Source: Escherichia phage vB_EcoM_LNA2
Reading direction: 5' to 3' (one strand)
Sequence record: MZ311865.1
DNA: 64,000 bases
The translations under genes and the position numbers were made by a program. The notes beneath the pieces are model-generated. The model saw only the letters and a program-made list of their open reading frames with translations. It made no database searches and had not been told where the DNA came from. Position 1 is the first letter of the stretch, and each line of letters begins with the position of its first letter. Shown here one piece after another: positions 1,853-45,978 of this stretch.

Positions 1853-4800
1853 ATGGCCGACATCAAACGTAAGTTCAGAGCCGAAGACGGTCTGGACGCC
1901 GGTGGCGACAAGATTGTTAACGTAGCATTAGCCGACCGTACAGTAGGTACTGATGGCGTAAACGTTGACTTCCTGGTACAAGAAAACACCGTTCAAGTAT
2001 ATGATTCTACGCGTGGATATAACAAAGGATTTGTTGTTCTTTATGACAACCGTTTATATCAAGCAATAAATGATATCGTGTCTCCTTCCGGGGCATTTAA
2101 CCTTTTACAATGGCGTGCAGTTCGTACCGATGCACAATGGATAACTGTAGCTTCTGGGTCTTATCAACTTTCTTCAGGTGAATCGATTTCGGTTAACACT
2201 GGTGCCGGCAATGATATGGTTTTCACGTTGCCAAATGCGCCGGTTGATGGTGACACTATTGTTTTGGCTGATATTGGTGGAAGAACCGGGGCAGTTAAAG
2301 TACAGATTAACGCGTCTGTGCAGAGTATTTTAAACTTTAGAGGCGAACAAGTTCGTACAGTTTTAATGACGCGTCCGCGTTCACAACTAGTGTTTGTGTT
2401 TAGTAATCGTTTGTGGCAGATGTATATTACCGATTATGGTAAAGAATCAATCACTGTTACACCTGCTACACCATATCAAGCGCAAGCAAACGATTTTATT
2501 GTTCTTCGTTTTACTAGTGCAGCACCAATCAACATTACACTTCCACGTAATGCTAACAATGGTGATATAATCAGCCTAGTTGATTTAGATAAATTAAACC
2601 CACTGTATCATACGATTATTAAAACATTTGATGATACAACGTCTATTGGCGAAGTCGGGACTCATATCGTCGAAGGTAGAACTTCTTCTGACGCGTTTTT
2701 TGTTTTTGATGCTGCAAATAGTTTATGGCGTATATGGGAAGGCGACCAGAAATCACGTCTTCGTATTATCCGTACAGATTCAAATATTCGCCCAAATGAA
2801 GAAGTTCTTATTTTTGGTACAAATAACGCTACAGCAGAAACTATTAACCTTACGCTTCCTACAGGAATTTTGACCGGTGACACTGTTAAAATTTCAATGA
2901 ACTACATGCGTAAAGGCCAAACAGTAAAAATTAAAGCTGCCGAAGGTGATACAATTGCTTCTTCTGTTGCATTACTTCAGTTCCCTAAACGTTCTGAATA
3001 TCCACCTGATGCTCAATGGGTCTCTGTTACTGAACTAGAATTCAATGGCACTACTTCATATGTTCCTGTATTAGAATTAGCGTATATCGAAGACACCGAT
3101 TCTGACACTCATTATTGGGTTGTGCAACAGAATGTCCCTACGGTAGAACGTGTTGATGCTGGAACTGATGCTACACGAGCTCGTTTAGGTGTTATTGCTC
3201 TTGCTACTCAAGCGCAAGCAAATGTTGATTTAGAGAATACTCCAGCTAAAGAAGTGGCTATTACTCCTGAAACTTTGGCAAATCGTACAGCAACTGAAGC
3301 TCGACGTGGTATCGCTAAAATTGCTACAACAGCACAAGTTAACCAGAATTCCACAGCATCATTTGTGGACGATACTATTGTTACGCCTAAAAAACTAAAT
3401 GAGCGTACAGCAACTGAAACTCGTCGTGGTCTTGCTGAAATTGCTACTCAGGCTGAAACCGATGCTGGTCTTGATGACACAACGATTATTACACCTAAGA
3501 AATTGCAGGCACGTCAGGGCTCTGAAACACTATCTGGTATAGTTAAATATGTATCAACTACTTCTGCTACACCTGCCGCGACTCGTGGAGCTGCAGGCAC
3601 TAATGTTTATAATAAAGACACAACCACGTTAACTATTTCTCCTAAAGCCCTTGACCAATATAAAGCAACTTATGCTCAACAAGGTGCAGTAATTTTAGCT
3701 GTTGATAGTGAAGTAATTGCTGGTCAATCACAAGCAGGTTATTCTCACGCTGTAGTAACTCCTGAAACACTACATAAGAAAACTTCTACTGATGGACGTA
3801 TTGGTTTAATTGAAATTGCTACGCAAGCAGAAACTAATGCTGGGACTGATTATACACGTGCAGTAACGCCTAAGACGTTAAATGATAGGAAAGCTACGGA
3901 AGGATTATCCGGCATAGCCGAACTTGCTACGCAAGTTGAATTTGATACTGGAACTGATGATACTCGTATCTCGACTCCACTGAAAATTAAAACTCATTTT
4001 GATTCTTCTGACCGTACCAGTGTTAATTCTGATTCCGGACTTATTGAAGAAGGAACCTTGTGGAACCATTATACTCTTGATATTTCTAAAGCAAATGAAA
4101 CACAACGTGGTACACTTCGCGTAGCGACCCAGGCAGAATCTAATGCAGGAACTTTAGATGATGTTCTTATTACTCCTAAAAAGCTTTTAGGGACTAAGTC
4201 CACTGAAACGTCTGAAGGCGTAATTAAGGTTGCTACTCAGGCTGAAACTGTAACAGGAACTTCTGCTAATACTGCTGTATCTCCTAAGAATTTAAAATGG
4301 ATTGTCCAGTCTGAACCAACATGGGCTGCTACTACGGCGATTCGTGGATTCGTTAAAACTTCATCCGGTTCTATTACATTCGTTGGTAATGATACAGTTG
4401 GTTCAACACAACCTTTAGAATCATATGAAAAAAATAGCTATGCTATATCTCCATATGAATTAAACCGTGTACTTGCTAACTATTTGCCATTGAAAGCTAA
4501 AGCAGTAGATAGTAATTTATTAGATGGTCTAGATTCATCTCAGTTCATTCGTAGGGATATTGCACAGACGGTTAATGGTTCACTAACCTTAACCCAACAA
4601 ACGAATCTGAGTGCCCCTCTTGTATCATCTAGTACTGCTACGTTTGGTGGTTCAGTTTCGGCAAATAGTACATTGACTATTTCTAACACTGGAACGACTT
4701 CTTCTCGATTTACATTTGAGAAAGGTCCTGCTTCTGGTAGTAATGCTGATTCTGCATTGTATGTTCGTGTATGGGGTAATAAGTACAGCGGCGGTTCTGA

Positions 4801-6929: not shown

Positions 6930-7595
6930 ATGGCCGATTTAAAAGCTGGTAGTACAACTGGCGGTGCCGTTATATGGCACCAAGGTAATTTCCCTTTAAT
7001 GCCAGCAGGTGATGACGTCCTGTATAAAACGTTTAAACTCTATTCAGAATACAATAAACCACAAGCGGCTGATAACGATTTTGTTTCTAAAGCTAATGGT
7101 GGTACTTTTGCGTCAAAGGTAACATTTAATGCTGGTGTTCAAGTACCATATGCTGTAAACAATACAAACCAAAGCGGTATTTATCCTGGCAATGGCGACG
7201 CAGCTACTTTTGCTACAGCAAATATTGATATTGTTTCATGGTATGGTATTGGTTTTAAATCATCACAGGGTTCAGCAGCCCGAACTGTGGTAATTAACAC
7301 ACGTAATGGTGATATTAGTACAAAAGGTGTTGTGTCGGCAGCTGGTCAAGTAAGAAGTGATGCGACTGCTCCTATAGCAGCGAATGACCTTACTAGAAAA
7401 GATTATGTTGATGGACGAATAAATATTATTACAGATAACGCAAATTCCCGTGTATTGCGTAAAGGCGATACCATGACTGGTACTTTAACAGCACCAAACT
7501 TTTTCTCACAGAATCCGGCGTCTGAGGCTAATCATGTTCCTCGTTTCGACCAGATTGTAATTAAAGATTCTGTTCAAGATTTCGGCTATTATTAA
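6930..7595 (+). CDS. 36: long tail fibre distal subunit connector gp36
   Basis: 221 aa; position and size as T4 gp36. Confidence 0.85.
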
Positions 7596-11938: not shown

Positions 11939-12211
11939 TTAGTTGTTAGAATACATCGCTAAATGACGATAAATATTTTCAAAACCTTCATTGAATTCAC
12001 TAATCAGTGTTTTCTTTTCTTCGGCAGTTAAATTTGTAATTAGTTTTCTGAACGAATTCTGATTTAGCTGCCGACCATCTTTTTTAATTCCAATCTCATT
12101 CAAGAATCCGATGAAACTTGCTCGGTCTTCAACAATATCTTCCCTAGAGAATTTAATCAAAATAGAAGCAATAGTAATAATTTCACGTACGATTTCAATG
12201 TCTTTATTCAT
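11939..12211 (-). CDS. asiA: anti-sigma70 factor AsiA
   Basis: 90 aa; MNKDIEIVREIITIASILIKFSREDIVE... near-identical to recalled T4 AsiA. Confidence 0.9.
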   Translation of the reverse strand: MNKDIEIVREIITIASILIKFSREDIVEDRASFIGFLNEIGIKKDGRQLNQNSFRKLITNLTAEEKKTLISEFNEGFENIYRHLAMYSNN

Positions 12212-14705: not shown

Positions 14706-14775
14706 TTTATTTCTCCAAATTAGTATTTGTTTTGATAGGTCTATAATATCATGTTTGAAGCAAAAGTAAACTTTA
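14701..14775 (-). repeat. copy A of ~75-bp duplicated promoter/5'UTR/start-codon cassette
   Basis: Near-identical to 15021..15097; includes GTTTAC -35, TATAAT-like -10, SD and ATGTCTAAA start of motA. Confidence 0.7.
14742..14771 (-). promoter_or_regulatory. T4-type early promoter (GTTTAC-N18-ATTATA) for motA
   Basis: Minus strand reads GTTTACttttgcttcaaacatgatATTATA; ~40 nt upstream of motA start. Confidence 0.5.
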
Positions 14776-14809
14776 TTTTGGGCTCTTTTTCCAAAAGCCC
14801 TGGTAAAAT

Positions 14810-15025
14810 TTACAAACTCATTTCTTTAATAAGGCCAATAAGTTTTGCCTTTTTAGAACGAAGCTTTTCTAAACGATGTCCATTTGAACCGCGAACCACT
14901 AAAGAATTGATTTCAACTTCTAAGAAATTTAATTCTTCAACAAGTGCTTTACGGGGAGCATTCATACCAGGTTTAACTTTACCAAAACGAGTAGTTGTGT
15001 TTTGGGTTAATTTCATTTTAGACAT
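14810..15025 (-). CDS. hypothetical 71-aa basic protein flanked by duplicated promoter cassette
   Basis: ORF MSKMKLTQNTTTRFGKVKPG...; starts with same ATGTCTAAA context as motA; lies between genes 52 and motA. Confidence 0.5.
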   Translation of the reverse strand: MSKMKLTQNTTTRFGKVKPGMNAPRKALVEELNFLEVEINSLVVRGSNGHRLEKLRSKKAKLIGLIKEMSL

Positions 15026-15097
15026 TTTATTTCTCCAATTTGGTTGTTTTGTTTTGATAGGTCTATAATATCATGTTTGAAGCACATGTAAACTGTT
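15021..15097 (-). repeat. copy B of ~75-bp duplicated promoter/5'UTR/start-codon cassette
   Basis: Near-identical to 14701..14775 (3-nt indel, few mismatches). Confidence 0.7.
15064..15093 (-). promoter_or_regulatory. T4-type early promoter (GTTTAC-N18-ATTATA)
   Basis: Minus strand GTTTACatgtgcttcaaacatgatATTATA upstream of the 71-aa ORF. Confidence 0.5.
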
Positions 15098-15103
15098 TTG
15101 TGA

Positions 15104-15134
15104 GAAAAATGCACAAAAGGGAGCCGAAGCTCCC
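15104..15134 (-). terminator. intrinsic terminator (UUCG hairpin + U-run) after gene 52
   Basis: Plus GGGAGC-CGAA-GCTCCC (15119-15134); on minus strand hairpin is followed by TTTTGTGCATTTTT. Confidence 0.5.
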
Positions 15135-15210
15135 TAATCATGTTTGTCCAACCAATACAGCCAAATCACTAGTGCAGCTATTGCACCGAGAAATCCTAAG
15201 GCTAGGGCAC

Positions 15211-16536
15211 TCAAAGTGCCTCCAAGTCTTTAGTGTACTCTGTCACAACATCGGTAGACTTCCAATACTCATTTTCTTCTTTCTTAGCTTTAGCTTCTTC
15301 GGCTAGTTTACGTGCTTCATCGGAAGTGATATGGAAGATGTTAAGACCTACCAGTTTATCGACATGTTCTTTATACATTTCTATTTGTGCTAGCTCTTCA
15401 GTCAAAGCTTTACGAGTCTTGCCCTGAATCACAATTTCACCGTTGATAACTTTTTTGATGAAGTGTGCCTTAGCAAAAGCCAGTTTAAATGCTTTTTCAG
15501 ATTCAAGGATTTTGTTGTCAATACGTTTCTGAACGTAAGTCTTACGGACTTCAACAAAATCTTTGATTAAGTCCACTACGTTATCGTAGACAGCTAATTT
15601 ACCCTTTTCATTAATCACTGTGATGTTTTGTGAACGACGTTCGATGAGACTAAAATCTTTCATGATTTTTTCATGACGTAGCTCTTCATCATCAGGAAGC
15701 GAGTACTCTTTACGGAACTTCACCTTAAACCCAAAGCCGTGTTCACCACAATCATCTTCCCATGAGATTAGACCTTTGTCTTCCAACGGGTCAAGAACCT
15801 TACTCACATACGTTTCACGGTCGAATTTATATGGGATTTCAGTTATCTGCATTTGAGTGCGAGATGTGAACTTATACGTTCCGTGAATCTCATAACGCCC
15901 ATCAACTTCATGTACTTCACCACGGAATTCCGGGAATTCAACTTTTGGCTTAGTGACATTTTTACCTTGAAGAGCTTGTAATACAGCCTTTTTTACCGAT
16001 TTAAAACTATGAGGCAGAATATTTGTTGCGTAACCGGTTGCAATACCAGAGACGCCATTCAAAAGAACTGTCGGAATAATAGGAAGATAGAATTTTGGTG
16101 GAATGTGTTCTTTATCTTCATGAGCTGGAGCATATTCAGTATCTTTATATACGTTATAGAAATTTTTACTTACACGAGCAAAAATATAACGAGATGCTGC
16201 AGCTTTTTGGACTGTTCTAGAACCAAAGTTGCCTTGGCCATCTAACAGTGGATAGTTGTTGTTCCATGTGTTAGCCATCAATGCACCTGCATCTTGTGCA
16301 GAAGATTCACCATGGTGATAACCTAAATCTGCAACACCGCCTGCAATTGACGCAAGTTTATGAAATTTTTCTTTATTACCACGAGCCAAATCTAACGCAC
16401 GATGGACCACAAAACGTTGAACCGGCTTAAATCCATCAATCATGTTTGGGATTGCACGGTTTTCAACGGTGTACATCGCATATGCTAAGGCTTCGTTATC
16501 AATAATACTTTTTAGATTACGAGAATTCAATTGCAT
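15211..16536 (-). CDS. 52: DNA topoisomerase II medium subunit gp52
   Basis: 441 aa; MQLNSRNLKSIIDNEALAYAMYTVENRAIPNMIDGFKPVQRF (GyrA-like) matches recalled T4 gp52. Confidence 0.9.
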   Translation of the reverse strand: MQLNSRNLKSIIDNEALAYAMYTVENRAIPNMIDGFKPVQRFVVHRALDLARGNKEKFHKLASIAGGVADLGYHHGESSAQDAGALMANTWNNNYPLLDGQGNFGSRTVQKAAASRYIFARVSKNFYNVYKDTEYAPAHEDKEHIPPKFYLPIIPTVLLNGVSGIATGYATNILPHSFKSVKKAVLQALQGKNVTKPKVEFPEFRGEVHEVDGRYEIHGTYKFTSRTQMQITEIPYKFDRETYVSKVLDPLEDKGLISWEDDCGEHGFGFKVKFRKEYSLPDDEELRHEKIMKDFSLIERRSQNITVINEKGKLAVYDNVVDLIKDFVEVRKTYVQKRIDNKILESEKAFKLAFAKAHFIKKVINGEIVIQGKTRKALTEELAQIEMYKEHVDKLVGLNIFHITSDEARKLAEEAKAKKEENEYWKSTDVVTEYTKDLEAL

Positions 16537-17663: not shown

Positions 17664-17774
17664 TTAAATTACATTAAAATATGTTAAAGCCAACCATGTT
17701 CCAGTGAACGAACATGCAATGTAAAAACCCGTATCACAAATTGTTCTTAGTACAATAAGAAGTGCAATTTTCAT
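17664..17774 (-). CDS. tiny hydrophobic peptide (36 aa)
   Basis: Hand-translated MKIALLIVLRTICDTGFYIACSFTGTWLALTYFNVI; ATGA overlap with upstream tiny ORF. Confidence 0.3.
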   Translation of the reverse strand: MKIALLIVLRTICDTGFYIACSFTGTWLALTYFNVI

Positions 17775-17857
17775 AAGTACCTCAACACAATTGAAAATAT
17801 TATACAAATCATTGGGATACTAAGCAACCATATTCCTATCCACATTTTAGAGCTCAT
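17771..17857 (-). CDS. tiny hydrophobic peptide (28 aa)
   Basis: Hand-translated MSSKMWIGIWLLSIPMICIIFSIVLRYL; start overlaps stop of upstream 87-aa ORF. Confidence 0.3.
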   Translation of the reverse strand: MSSKMWIGIWLLSIPMICIIFSIVLRYL

Positions 17858-18117
17858 ATCTCAACTTCCGCGAGTTCCATATATCCTTTGTTGATAACCT
17901 CTTTAAGGTCTTTAGAAAGAATAACACTAAAATGGTCGTTCATATGTCCATTAACTAAACGAGTTATTTCTGCTTCAGATGACATATAAGGCACGTCTGA
18001 GTCCCAATGAGATAGACCCAAATGGGTATAAATCATCCCTTCGTCATCTGCAGTGTTGTACATTGAAACAAATTCGCCTGTTACTTTATGTTTTGCGTAG
18101 AAAAATTTAAATTTCAT
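17854..18117 (-). CDS. hypothetical early protein
   Basis: 87-aa ORF with promoter 18144-18173 upstream. Confidence 0.45.
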   Translation of the reverse strand: MKFKFFYAKHKVTGEFVSMYNTADDEGMIYTHLGLSHWDSDVPYMSSEAEITRLVNGHMNDHFSVILSKDLKEVINKGYMELAEVEI

Positions 18118-35273: not shown

Positions 35274-35281
35274 TATTTATA
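35274..35281 (-). promoter_or_regulatory. T4-type late promoter TATAAATA (minus strand) upstream of soc
   Basis: Plus tatttata = minus TATAAATA, about 35 nt upstream of soc ATG. Confidence 0.45.
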
Positions 35282-35288
35282 TCAGTAA

Positions 35289-35810
35289 TCAGTAACCATT
35301 ATCCTGGCGTTCAAAGTTGTGTTGGTTTTTCAAGTAGTAAAGTTTAAAGATTTCTTCAGCGGAAAGACCAAGACCTTGGAACATATTCAGAACAAAGTGC
35401 AGAATATCAATCATCTCGAATTTAATTTCGAGCTGGTCTTCAGGAGACAGTTCATCGATACGACGATTTCGATATTCAGCATGTTGAGCTTTCCAAGGCT
35501 TCCATACAGAGCTAGCGGCTTTTTCACCATTGCTCATACCACCAAGTGAAGTCAACAGTTCACGGAATTCATCATCAATATAATCTTTCTGATTACGCAG
35601 CCAATCAACAACATCGCCAGCAGTGGCCAATTCGTCAGGATGTTTGTTATGTTCAGGCTTATCATTTGCCAGACGAACCTGTAAAGATTTCTGCATATCA
35701 AGCATTACCTGCAGAGGGTCTTTATCTTCATGAATCAGAGCATTAAAATAAGCTTCTTCTGCTTTATCAACACCAGAAATAAGTTGTGAACATTCGTTAA
35801 AGTGCGCCAT
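35289..35810 (-). CDS. 56: dCTPase-dUTPase gp56
   Basis: Track ORF 35289..35825; start at ATG 35808-35810 (MAHFNEC...); DPLQVMLDMQ...ETAGDVV.W...DDEFRELLTSLG matches recalled T4 gp56. Confidence 0.85.
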   Translation of the reverse strand: MAHFNECSQLISGVDKAEEAYFNALIHEDKDPLQVMLDMQKSLQVRLANDKPEHNKHPDELATAGDVVDWLRNQKDYIDDEFRELLTSLGGMSNGEKAASSVWKPWKAQHAEYRNRRIDELSPEDQLEIKFEMIDILHFVLNMFQGLGLSAEEIFKLYYLKNQHNFERQDNGY

Positions 35811-35900
35811 TATTTTTCCTTTCAATTCAGTATAAGAGAGTTTAATTCTAACATTAATTTTATAAAGCGTAATAAATAATAAGGTAACTAAGGAGATATT

Positions 35901-36098
35901 ATGTTTAAACTTCCATCGTTAATCAACGCTATTAAAGGCAATAAAAAGAAAACTGCTATCGCTGCAATAGTTGTAGGTGGCATTATTTCATGGAACTTCG
36001 GGATTGCGCCATTGTTAGTTGCCCATGGTGTTATGGTTCCTTCTGTTCCATTGGATACTGTAGTTGATTTGGCCTTTGCTATTATAGGGCTTGTTTAA
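35901..36098 (+). CDS. small membrane protein (65 aa) on opposite strand
   Basis: Strong AAGGAG RBS 8 nt upstream; two predicted TM segments; convergent with gene 61. Confidence 0.5.
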   Translation: MFKLPSLINAIKGNKKKTAIAAIVVGGIISWNFGIAPLLVAHGVMVPSVPLDTVVDLAFAIIGLV

Positions 36099-37117
36099 AT
36101 CTTAGAATAATGAGATAATCTCATTTTAGCATGCAACCCACTTGAAATATTCTGTTTCATATATTCTAAAATTTCTTGTGGTGTTGCATTTTCTTTCATT
36201 ACCATATCATTCACATCCTTTGATCTCCACGGAGCTCGGTCCCAGAACATGACACGTTCGCCTGCATCAACTAATCGCTTCATGCGAGCTATAGTATCCG
36301 GATGCCTAGGTTCATTATCCATCACCCATACCCGACGTTCTTTAAATGGTACCACATCTAAATCTATTGAGCCGCCTGTAATAGCTATTGCATTGGGTAT
36401 GAATAAACTATCAATAGGGCCTTCCATTACCCAGACGTCTCCTTCCTTAACACGTTCAACACCATAAATTTTTGTTGCAGACTCAAATGCTTTAATAGTG
36501 ATATATTTCTGAGGAGCATCTTTACGAAGTGCACGTCCTTGGAATGACTCAGCCTTCCCGTCTTTATTAAAAATAGGAATCACTAAACGTGGTTCGGGAA
36601 TCTCTTTCTTATACGTACCAGGTTGAATCTTGTTGACCAATTTAGGCCATTCTAATGTGAACCATAATCTGTTCCATGATTCTTTAGGAATGCATCGAGA
36701 CTTAACATATTTCACAATAGGATGCTCTTCAGGCAGCTTGTCCAGACGAGAACAAGACGGCAAAGAATTTATAGTCTTTTTCTCCGGTTCTGGTTTATGT
36801 TCAGGAACCTTTTCAATCTTTGGTTCCATTCTAGCTTTTTCTTTACGAACTTCCATTAGATATTCGCGGTAAAGCTCTTCATCATACTCTTTTAAGTATC
36901 CGGAAATTGTATTGTGGTATTGGCAGTTATAGCAATGTACATTACCAGGAGTACCGCCATAATACCATCCACGAGCTTTCATTGCATCTGTCTGGGAGTC
37001 GCCACAAACTGGACAACGAAATGTTAATTTAAATGTGCTTGAATTATTGATTTGTCTAAAACGAGGTAGGTGAGAAAACGCACGATAAGCAAATTCATTA
37101 TCTATCCATTCAGCCAT
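36095..37117 (-). CDS. 61: DNA primase gp61
   Basis: 340 aa; N-terminal zinc ribbon CPVCGDS...CYNC and TOPRIM-like core; position as T4 gene 61. Confidence 0.9.
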   Translation of the reverse strand: MAEWIDNEFAYRAFSHLPRFRQINNSSTFKLTFRCPVCGDSQTDAMKARGWYYGGTPGNVHCYNCQYHNTISGYLKEYDEELYREYLMEVRKEKARMEPKIEKVPEHKPEPEKKTINSLPSCSRLDKLPEEHPIVKYVKSRCIPKESWNRLWFTLEWPKLVNKIQPGTYKKEIPEPRLVIPIFNKDGKAESFQGRALRKDAPQKYITIKAFESATKIYGVERVKEGDVWVMEGPIDSLFIPNAIAITGGSIDLDVVPFKERRVWVMDNEPRHPDTIARMKRLVDAGERVMFWDRAPWRSKDVNDMVMKENATPQEILEYMKQNISSGLHAKMRLSHYSKI

Positions 37118-37842: not shown

Positions 37843-38502
37843 TTAACCTCGATTCATAAATGCATTAAATATTTGGTCATCAACAGAAATTTCTAATTCG
37901 ACTTCAATTGTTTCAGCCTTTTCTTCAGGTGGTAATTCGTATCCACACACTACAATTTTTTCATCGATATCAAAATATACAGAAGCAATACGATTAATGT
38001 TACTTTCAGTTAAGTCTAAATCAACATCAACATCTTTTTGACCTACACTTAAAGGATAACTAATACGGGTTATTTTATTATCTTTAACAAAGAGTCCACC
38101 GACATACTCTGTACTACGTTTGAAGTTTACACGTTTCCGAAATGAAAGATATGATGCATCTTTACCGTGAGCTCGGCTCATAGGACATAATGAATAGCTA
38201 GAATAAGAGATGTCAAATCCTACACCTTCAATATGAGCCAACGCGTCATGATTAAACCAATTATAATCATATGCCAAATCCATTATATTGTAATATGTGA
38301 AAGGCACCGGATTAACATCATACGTTGTACCTTTAAAATCTGCCCAGGCAACGATTTCGTTATCTTTAACAATTACAAAAATTACACCAATATGGTATCC
38401 GTTATTATTTTCGTTAGGCGTTATATTATAACATTGTGCATTAGGAAATTTACCATATTTAAATGGCGCATTTTTGTGCATATAATAAATCATATTATTC
38501 AC
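37843..38502 (-). CDS. hypothetical protein
   Basis: 219-aa ORF between sp and 61. Confidence 0.5.
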   Translation of the reverse strand: MNNMIYYMHKNAPFKYGKFPNAQCYNITPNENNNGYHIGVIFVIVKDNEIVAWADFKGTTYDVNPVPFTYYNIMDLAYDYNWFNHDALAHIEGVGFDISYSSYSLCPMSRAHGKDASYLSFRKRVNFKRSTEYVGGLFVKDNKITRISYPLSVGQKDVDVDLDLTESNINRIASVYFDIDEKIVVCGYELPPEEKAETIEVELEISVDDQIFNAFMNRG

Positions 38503-38788
38503 CTGTGATTTCGGTTACGATATCTTTGTTATCGAAATTAGGGTCACAATACAAAACATAATTGTACTGCATGATACCACCAGACTTAAGTTGTTCAACA
38601 ACTTTATTAACCATATTAGGACGGTCTCGTTTAGTGATGTTCATGATATCAGAGAAGATTTGTTGTTCAACATCTTCTTGATTTGCAGTCATTGACCACT
38701 CACAGAGGTCTTTATCATAACCTGCTGTAACTGGAGCCGGTGCACATGATACTGCAAGTAAGATTGCTGCCAATGATAACTTTTTCAT
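38495..38788 (-). CDS. sp: Spackle periplasmic protein (Sp)
   Basis: 97 aa; signal peptide MKKLSLAAILLAVSCA; GYDKDLCEWSMTA...SGG.MQYNYVLYCD matches recalled T4 Sp. Confidence 0.8.
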   Translation of the reverse strand: MKKLSLAAILLAVSCAPAPVTAGYDKDLCEWSMTANQEDVEQQIFSDIMNITKRDRPNMVNKVVEQLKSGGIMQYNYVLYCDPNFDNKDIVTEITGE

Positions 38789-38851: not shown

Positions 38852-39100
38852 TTATTCTTTTTCGCGAATAATAATTACTTGTTGAGGCTGCTGAGCAGAT
38901 TTCTTTTCGGCAACGATAGACCAAATTAAAGTTCCAATCCAACCAATCATCGTCCAGTTAAAGAGTAAAGATACAAAGAAGATTGCTGTTGTGCTTTTTG
39001 TGCCACGAATAAGTGCGATTACCCAAGGCAACATGTAAATGATGATTGAACCAATACCTGCGATTAAAACTGCTACTGAACTAGCTACGAATAATTCCAT
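38852..39100 (-). CDS. superinfection-immunity (Imm)-like membrane protein
   Basis: 82 aa, two TM segments, motif LIRGTK...LLFNWTMIGWIGTLIWS resembling Imm family. Confidence 0.5.
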   Translation of the reverse strand: MELFVASSVAVLIAGIGSIIIYMLPWVIALIRGTKSTTAIFFVSLLFNWTMIGWIGTLIWSIVAEKKSAQQPQQVIIIREKE

Positions 39101-45846: not shown

Positions 45847-45978
45847 GTTTACCTCAATACAATTTATTATATACTCAATTCATAAAGCTTATTTGAATTT
45901 CTTAGCGATGTTGATATAACGTAAAGCTTCAGCATCGATATTTCCAAGAACACTATGAAGAAATGCATCAGCGTAGTA

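Follow-up and report, generated by a model that had tools for sequence, protein, structure and literature searches.

A small, widely conserved gene of T-even phages lies against the strand of the early region and probably encodes a late membrane protein

The stretch of DNA analysed here, 64,000 nucleotides long and referred to below as the window, comes from a T-even phage, an RB69-like member of the genus Mosigvirus. In it, an open reading frame (ORF) on the plus strand separates gene 56 from gene 61, both encoded on the minus strand (Table 1), and the 2-kb stretch around this ORF shares 98-99% identity with the Escherichia phages AV117, HX01 and SF. The coordinates given in a preliminary description were all correct, and the arrangement it reported, a 65-residue plus-strand ORF with an AAGGAG ribosome-binding site that converges on gene 61 with overlapping stop codons, was confirmed in the sequence. 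The same description had called the ORF the sole plus-strand gene in about 52 kb. From position 11939 to 64000 the coding strand is indeed the minus strand, and four plus-strand ORFs of at least 35 residues lie mostly outside minus-strand ORFs. The three intergenic ORFs other than the one studied here all lack a Shine-Dalgarno sequence, and the 85-residue ORF at 45955, the only one of the three that was scanned, had no match in PHROGs. Plus-strand ORFs in the early block at 14751, 15073, 25993, 45955 and 59611 were rejected as genes; those spanning 14751..15306 give way to a minus-strand ORF that has a phrog_6200 match and is annotated on that strand in HX01 as well. With the other candidates either displaced or devoid of a Shine-Dalgarno sequence, the claim of a single plus-strand gene was borne out. 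Three tiny plus-strand ORFs (78-114 nt) are annotated in the early block of the HX01 RefSeq record (L001; 2260..2373, 2380..2457 and 3602..3679), one of them overlapping the gene 56 start; these are probably spurious annotations, by which a reading based on strand could be led astray.

Table 1. Features at the gene 56 to gene 61 locus, in window coordinates.
Feature	Position	Strand	Remarks
Gene 56, dCTPase, divergent neighbour	35289..35810	-	phrog_173, E=1.6e-45; RB69 annotation, 522 nt; ATG at 35810
T4-type late promoter motif AATAAATA, -13 to -6	35871-35878	+	22 nt upstream of the ATG
Predicted late transcription start	35884	+	Placed six bases past 35878
Shine-Dalgarno sequence AAGGAG	35890-35895	+	5 nt upstream of the ORF ATG
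Sigma-70-like match TTGATT-17-CATAAT (tentative)	35898-35926	-	Inside the 5' end of the ORF, aimed at gene 56
Coding sequence of the ORF, 65 codons	35901..36098	+	ATG start, TAA stop; RB69ORF029w orthologue, phrog_2024
Codons of the predicted transmembrane helix, residues 15-41	35943..36023	+	AlphaFold2 and hydropathy
Codons of the predicted C-terminal hydrophobic/amphipathic helix, residues 51-62	36051..36086	+	After the conserved G-x3-P turn
TTAA, overlapping stop codons	36095-36098		TAA of the ORF at 36096-36098 (+), TAA of gene 61 at 36095-36097 (-)
Gene 61, DNA primase, convergent neighbour	36095..37117	-	phrog_47, E=5e-101; RB69 annotation

The ORF product matches the PHROG 2024 profile from end to end (E=2.6e-27, residues 1-65 on profile positions 1-65 of 65). 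This family has no assigned function, and its RB69 member, RB69ORF029w, is annotated as 'hypothetical protein'. The RB69ORF029w, RB32ORF030w and bas37_0144 entries of PHROG 2024 represent the same gene as the one in the window, with the same position, strand and 4-nt overlap with gene 61, and none of them has been assigned a function, promoter or topology. The gene is therefore not new as an object, being already annotated as hypothetical in most relatives. Searches with tblastn matched the protein in 692 phage records, comprising about 150 with at least 90% identity (Mosigvirus), over 500 with about 55% (Tequatrovirus, T4 included) and Gaprivervirus-type members at about 45%; the RB69 protein itself is 95% identical, with three differences in 65 residues, as against about 55% for the T4-type orthologues. 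In addition, searching 1.84 billion representative proteins with a profile returned eight matches, four of which are remote homologues (P0077-P0080, E=7e-5 to 1e-3). Three of these (P0077, P0079 and P0080) lie on the plus strand in the gene 56 to gene 61 interval of T4-like contigs, and P0078, on a 745-nt contig (L016), shows the same strand arrangement, on the plus strand between two unidentified minus-strand ORFs.

The gene is found in six genera of the Tevenvirinae (Mosigvirus, Tequatrovirus, Gaprivervirus, Jiaodavirus, Karamvirus and Kanagawavirus), with the same position and orientation in all of them, and annotated members include those of Jiaodavirus PKO111, Karamvirus CkP1 and Kanagawavirus KLB31. 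The homologues measure 60-68 residues, and a Shine-Dalgarno sequence is present in 15 of 15 loci in the form (A)AGGAG(G), AGGAGG, GGAGG or, in L007, GGAG. Conservation across relatives had been proposed as a check on the gene, and frame, length, Shine-Dalgarno sequence and synteny are kept throughout the six genera. The interval from gene 56 to gene 61 is an insertion hotspot, which holds dam in T4 (L003, 2347..3126, minus strand), a homing endonuclease gene in YenM_P8 (L005, 2786..3553, minus strand) and extra small ORFs in L017 (4204..4578, minus strand), L019 and CkP1; the small plus-strand gene has been kept despite all of these insertions. A tandem paralogue was seen in L007, where a 67-residue copy (…VWNLVIVPLAATQAIILPQVELQHILSIIKAIG…) at 2805..3008 on the plus strand lies directly upstream of the family gene and has its own CATAAATA and AGGAGG, so that the two form a two-gene unit. 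Gaprivervirus-type phages carry what appears to be a truncated paralogue remnant downstream (…WNLLVVPIAATQGVHLPQVTMEHIHSIIGYF…), without an obvious ATG (in SP18, L024, at about 1660-1780 on the plus strand). A short plus-strand ORF in the same interval of YenM_P8 (L005, 2715..2816) is annotated as 'DNA packaging ATPase', which is implausible.

Spurious plus-strand ORFs reaching 60 residues or more number in the dozens in the window, and the length of the ORF alone is therefore not above chance. What sets it apart from a chance frame is its location in a gap together with its Shine-Dalgarno sequence, promoter motif, conserved synteny and the signature of purifying selection. In pairwise codon comparisons the synonymous sites are saturated (pS 0.70-0.84, about 0.75), while pN is 0.16-0.38, and dN/dS is 0.08-0.36 where dS can be estimated, except in the near-identical pair of window and HX01 with its three differences. 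Differences between the window ORF and L007 are likewise dominated by third codon positions (17, 6 and 37 at the first, second and third positions). Judged by these substitution patterns, the ORF is protein-coding and under purifying selection at the level of the protein.

The spacing and sequence of the upstream region point to a late promoter. The T4 late motif is defined by positions -13 to -6 relative to the transcription start (PMC1524935), and the element found here, AATAAATA, is the A(-13) variant of TATAAATA. The late promoters of T4 relatives often have A or T at -13 (PMC1524935), and in T4 itself, whose late promoters tolerate a single deviation from TATAAATA, A(-13) is the commonest natural variant, occurring in 9 of the 50 promoters listed (PMC2988020). 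Of 15 homologous loci from the six genera, 13 retain the block NATAAATA at 14-33 nt upstream of the start codon, and the two exceptions carry a degenerate motif (TATTAATA in L011 and ATTAAATA in CkP1). The spacers have diverged across the 15 loci, and only the NATAAATA and Shine-Dalgarno blocks persist. Position -13 was A, G or C in every locus examined and never the consensus T. The corresponding motif of the T4 orthologue, GATAAATA, lies at 17709-17716 of NC_000866, with a predicted start at about 17722.

Motifs of this kind are scarce in the window. WATAAATA occurs 7 times against 17 expected and ATAAATA 10 times against 29, a roughly threefold depletion, and in none of 100 shuffles did either count fall below the observed one; the depletion of ATAAATA is consistent with selection against stray late promoters. 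All seven WATAAATA sites lie on the coding strand, in the late block of tail-fibre and holin genes, before soc or before the ORF, and five of them stand 20-31 nt before a start codon, with gaps to the ATG of 30 nt for gp34, 24 nt for gp36, 20 nt for the holin gene t, 31 nt for soc and 22 nt for the ORF. The 52-kb early block contains only two copies, those of the ORF and of soc. Three ATAAATA copies have no obvious late gene start nearby (73-79 and 7178-7184 on the minus strand, 11969-11975 on the plus strand), the last of them falling within the first minus-strand ORF, just past where the holin gene stops.

A consensus scan found no sigma-70-like promoter on the plus strand. Sigma-70-like matches are not enriched (2 observed against 4.3 expected in shuffles), and the tentative minus-strand match in Table 1 would, if real, make the 5' end of the ORF double as a promoter for gene 56; a search by eye for a MotA-box middle promoter of gene 56 within the ORF found none. 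Early and middle transcription of T4 runs counterclockwise throughout (PMC2988020), that is, on the other strand, so that a gene on the strand of the ORF can only be late. Judged from its sequence, the ORF is in all likelihood a late protein-coding gene. The earlier suggestion of an independently regulated, possibly late, membrane factor thus gains support from the conserved late motif, the strand and the predicted transmembrane helix described below.

An AlphaFold2 model built from a 16-sequence alignment (mean pLDDT 82.7) predicts helices at residues 3-11, 15-41 and 51-62. The second of these is hydrophobic, with a best 19-residue Kyte-Doolittle mean of 1.9 in the window protein and 1.8-2.6 in the homologues. 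Across the family it is flanked by 4-6 lysine or arginine residues on the N-terminal side and 0-2 on the C-terminal side, and this bias predicts an N-in/C-out orientation by the positive-inside rule. On these sequence features, the ORF product is probably an N-in/C-out membrane protein. The preliminary description had noted two hydrophobic segments and proposed a prediction of membrane topology as a check. One clear transmembrane span emerged, by hydropathy and as the AlphaFold2 helix at 15-41, and a second span was not supported. The other hydrophobic segment, at the C-terminus, contains two Asp residues in the window protein and Glu, Lys or Gln in remote members; being short and Asp-containing, it is more likely to form an interfacial helix on the periplasmic side than to cross the membrane.

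In a broad alignment W31 and P37 never vary, and N32, replaced by Asp in a single homologue, is almost invariant, as are G43 and P47, which gives the helix and its end a conserved W-N/D-F/Y…P…G pattern. Conserved polar residues in the middle of a membrane span are among the features through which helices can bind one another. Outside the membrane core, the most conserved stretch of the family is P-x-A-x2-G-x2-L-P-P-x3-E (residues 35-59 of the window protein). It resembles residues 3-27 of AaeX (DUF1656), a 67-residue E. coli membrane protein encoded in the aaeXAB efflux operon (aaeX lies at 3135..3338 on the minus strand of L025). An hhalign comparison of the family with AaeX gave a pairwise P of 0.0011 and a probability of 20% over 25 columns, and one remote member matched the NCBIfam AaeX model at E=0.013 (15.8 bits against a cut-off of 82), with no Pfam match. 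We rejected homology to AaeX on these values, which are too weak and lie far below the family cut-off, and keep the resemblance as a lead only; for AaeX itself we know of no mechanism.

Searches for a function gave little to build on. Scans with Pfam, NCBIfam and PADLOC of the window protein, the T4 orthologue and the four remote homologues returned no significant match, the PADLOC models for defence and counter-defence matched none of six family members, and a profile search of PDB sequences was negative. Foldseek retrieved family members only, all in BFVD, and nothing in PDB. Genetic data come from the Bas37 orthologue bas37_0144, which is placed at 91945..92145 on the plus strand, 201 nt long and overlapping the primase gene by 4 nt, in a preprint (bioRxiv 10.1101/2025.11.20.689424). 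In the HIDEN-SEQ Tn-seq data given there, insertions were recovered at 20 of its 24 TA sites, making the gene non-essential on E. coli K-12, and it was depleted neither on uropathogenic CFT073 (log2FC +0.33, p=0.46) nor in a second comparison (+0.20, p=0.66; bioRxiv 10.1101/2025.11.20.689424). This dispensability, together with the lack of depletion in two host comparisons, offers no hint of the process involved. The gene looks accessory, with a new modulator of the late envelope as the likely pay-off and a core function unlikely.

Several known T-even genes invite comparison. In T4 and RB69, soc is likewise a lone small late gene amid early genes, with a motif of the TATAAATA type that precedes its ATG by about 20-30 nt (in the window the soc motif lies at 35274-35281 on the minus strand), but soc shares the strand of the early genes and its product is a soluble protein that decorates the capsid, whereas the ORF lies on the opposite strand and would encode a membrane protein. 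Imm, Sp, RI and Ac are, like the ORF product, short accessory T-even proteins that act at the inner membrane or in the periplasm; imm and sp, however, are early genes on the other strand, and the Pfam scan of the window protein revealed no relationship to them. Several small envelope-acting genes cluster within 3 kb of the ORF, sp and imm at a distance of 2.4-3 kb. In the window, as in RB69 and HX01, imm adjoins the spackle gene (sp) in the interval between genes 61 and 41 (38852..39100 and 38495..38788, both on the minus strand); in T4, imm instead adjoins gene 42.

A further comparison is with the T4 holin T (phrog_860), a late-expressed membrane protein of a lytic phage, as the ORF product would be if late timing holds, and it raises the question of whether the family comprises holins, pinholins or antiholin-type lysis proteins. 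The product is small and predicted to have at least the one transmembrane domain of a holin (one helix, Kyte-Doolittle 1.8-2.6), its late promoter is of the same kind as that of the window's holin gene t, the orthologue in vB_EcoM_OE5505 is labelled 'Holin' in UniProt and BFVD, and one remote homologue hit GTA_holin_3TM, very weakly and below threshold (E=0.1). The OE5505 label, however, has no evidence behind it, and neither Pfam, PHROGs (including its lysis families) nor NCBIfam gave a significant match to a holin family. The charged, hydrophilic C-terminal tail of holins is absent as well, since the charge cluster of the ORF product sits at the N-terminus; its last 24 residues are hydrophobic, without Lys or Arg, and carry a net charge of -2. 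Moreover, the window already encodes a T holin, from which the ORF product differs in having no family match and no large periplasmic domain and in the dispensability of its orthologue, which proved non-essential by Tn-seq in Bas37. A role as a lysis protein of this type thus seems improbable.

The convergence with gene 61 raises a different alternative, in which late antisense transcription or collision would silence primase mRNA late in infection and the ORF would be incidental. The stop codons overlap in TTAA, and we found no terminator-like hairpin within 600 nt downstream of the ORF in the window; a weak AUGAGA/UCUCAU hairpin at about 36111-36125 was rejected as a terminator, as it is not conserved in RB69 or T4. 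Without a terminator, the late transcript should run antisense into gene 61, and there are sites in T4 where both strands are known to be transcribed, though at different times (PMC2988020). The same 4-nt overlap recurs in RB69, HX01, T4, Bas37, L016, L017, L019, CkP1 and KLB31. The partner is the primase gene in T4, Bas37, L019, CkP1 and KLB31; it is a 124-residue ORF in L017 and an unidentified partial ORF in the 745-nt contig L016. The 4-nt overlap is absent, however, from L007, L011, L014, PKO111, CJ20, YenM_P8 and L009, in the last of which the family ORF overlaps gene 61 by 14 nt. GC-rich hairpins occupy the short gap between the convergent genes in L007 (AGGGAGgaaaCTCCCT followed by a T-run), L011 and PKO111 (GGGGCttcgGCCCC), and the two genes are separated by a 118-nt spacer in CJ20, by the homing endonuclease gene in YenM_P8 and by another ORF in L017. 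The antisense overlap is thus not conserved, interrupted as it is in L007, L011, PKO111, CJ20, YenM_P8 and L017, whereas the protein is conserved there and the ORF is under strong purifying selection at the protein level. The antisense relationship with the primase transcript that the preliminary description had raised is therefore not a conserved feature of the locus. The overlap looks like a by-product of tight packing, with the protein as the conserved element, and a function at the level of RNA is quite improbable.

If the conserved element is a protein, its helix could in principle be a leader rather than an anchor. A signal peptidase might cut at the A/T/S-x-G pattern that follows the helix, and a secreted peptide some 22 residues long (VMVPSVPLDTVVDLAFAIIGLV) would then be the product. 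A basic N-region, a Pro at -7 and small residues at -3 and -1 (A-H-G in the window protein, T-H-G, S-H-G and T-K-G in relatives) would suit such a long cleavable signal peptide, but Sec leaders rarely have a hydrophobic stretch as long as its 24-27 residues, position -3 is Phe in L019, and the best-conserved residues of the family (W-N-F and P) would fall inside the part that is removed and in the N-terminal helix, which would be unusual. We regard cleavage as very improbable. That the ORF is a chance reading frame or annotation artefact in an AT-rich intergenic region, as the many spurious plus-strand ORFs of similar length in the window and the absence of the gene from the T4 and SP18 reference annotations might suggest, is effectively refuted by the frame, the 60-68-residue length, the Shine-Dalgarno sequence and the promoter conserved across six genera, by saturated synonymous sites with low pN, and by the kept synteny of the remote homologues.

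We propose instead that the locus is a self-contained late transcription unit set against the grain of the early region, in which the gp55-type late promoter AATAAATA and a strong Shine-Dalgarno sequence would drive a 65-codon gene. Its product would be a small bitopic inner-membrane protein, with the basic, amphipathic N-terminus remaining in the cytoplasm and a single transmembrane helix (about residues 15-41) bearing the polar W-N/D-F/Y motif, the Pro and the Gly, followed on the periplasmic side by a turn rich in Pro and a short helix of hydrophobic or amphipathic character. We infer that such a protein would not act as an enzyme but through a partner: like other small membrane proteins, it may use the polar motif in mid-membrane to bind itself or a larger membrane protein of the phage or host. 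Binding might then tune a late event at the envelope, for which lysis timing, lysis inhibition, membrane integrity or membrane-associated assembly are guesses on our part. Taken as a whole, a self-contained late unit for an accessory bitopic protein of the inner membrane that acts through a partner is the explanation towards which we lean, if only slightly, and the assignment of any particular process to the ORF product would at present be unlikely to be right.

The T4 reference annotation lacks the gene. The T4 orthologue has 66 codons, lies at 17738..17938 on the plus strand of NC_000866 (3239..3439 of L003) and overlaps gene 61 by 4 nt, and at its place the NC_000866 and AF158101 annotations have an empty gap of 309 bp. 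The exact protein has no NCBI or UniProt accession in a collection of 15 billion proteins, and the SP18 annotation omits the gene too. Our searches of the literature on the ORF names, on T4 Ribo-seq and small ORFs and on T4 transcription start and antisense maps found nothing on the locus; the conserved late promoter, the breadth of the family at a fixed, inverted position and the gap in the T4 annotation go unmentioned in the literature and annotations searched. The CRISPRi-ART library for T4 was designed on NC_000866 (PMC11879866) and would thus have missed the gene, as would the HIDEN-SEQ screen of T4, since no gene is listed between dam and gene 61 in the T4 gene table used for it.

T4 serves as the reference phage of this group, and its list of genes is commonly taken to be complete, so that adding the ORF would close a gap in a model genome; the locus also offers a clean, single-gene late promoter island on the strand opposite to the early region. 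A bolder reading, which we consider unlikely but worth stating, is that the family is an overlooked group of late inner-membrane proteins, held in a single slot across six enterobacterial genera and unannotated in T4, that acts through the intramembrane W-N-F…P…G motif on a membrane protein of the phage or host and thereby controls a late envelope process. If this were true, the timing or inhibition of lysis, resistance to late superinfection or to lysis from without, and membrane-bound prohead initiation would be the candidate processes, and screens built on the T4 reference annotation would have missed the family.
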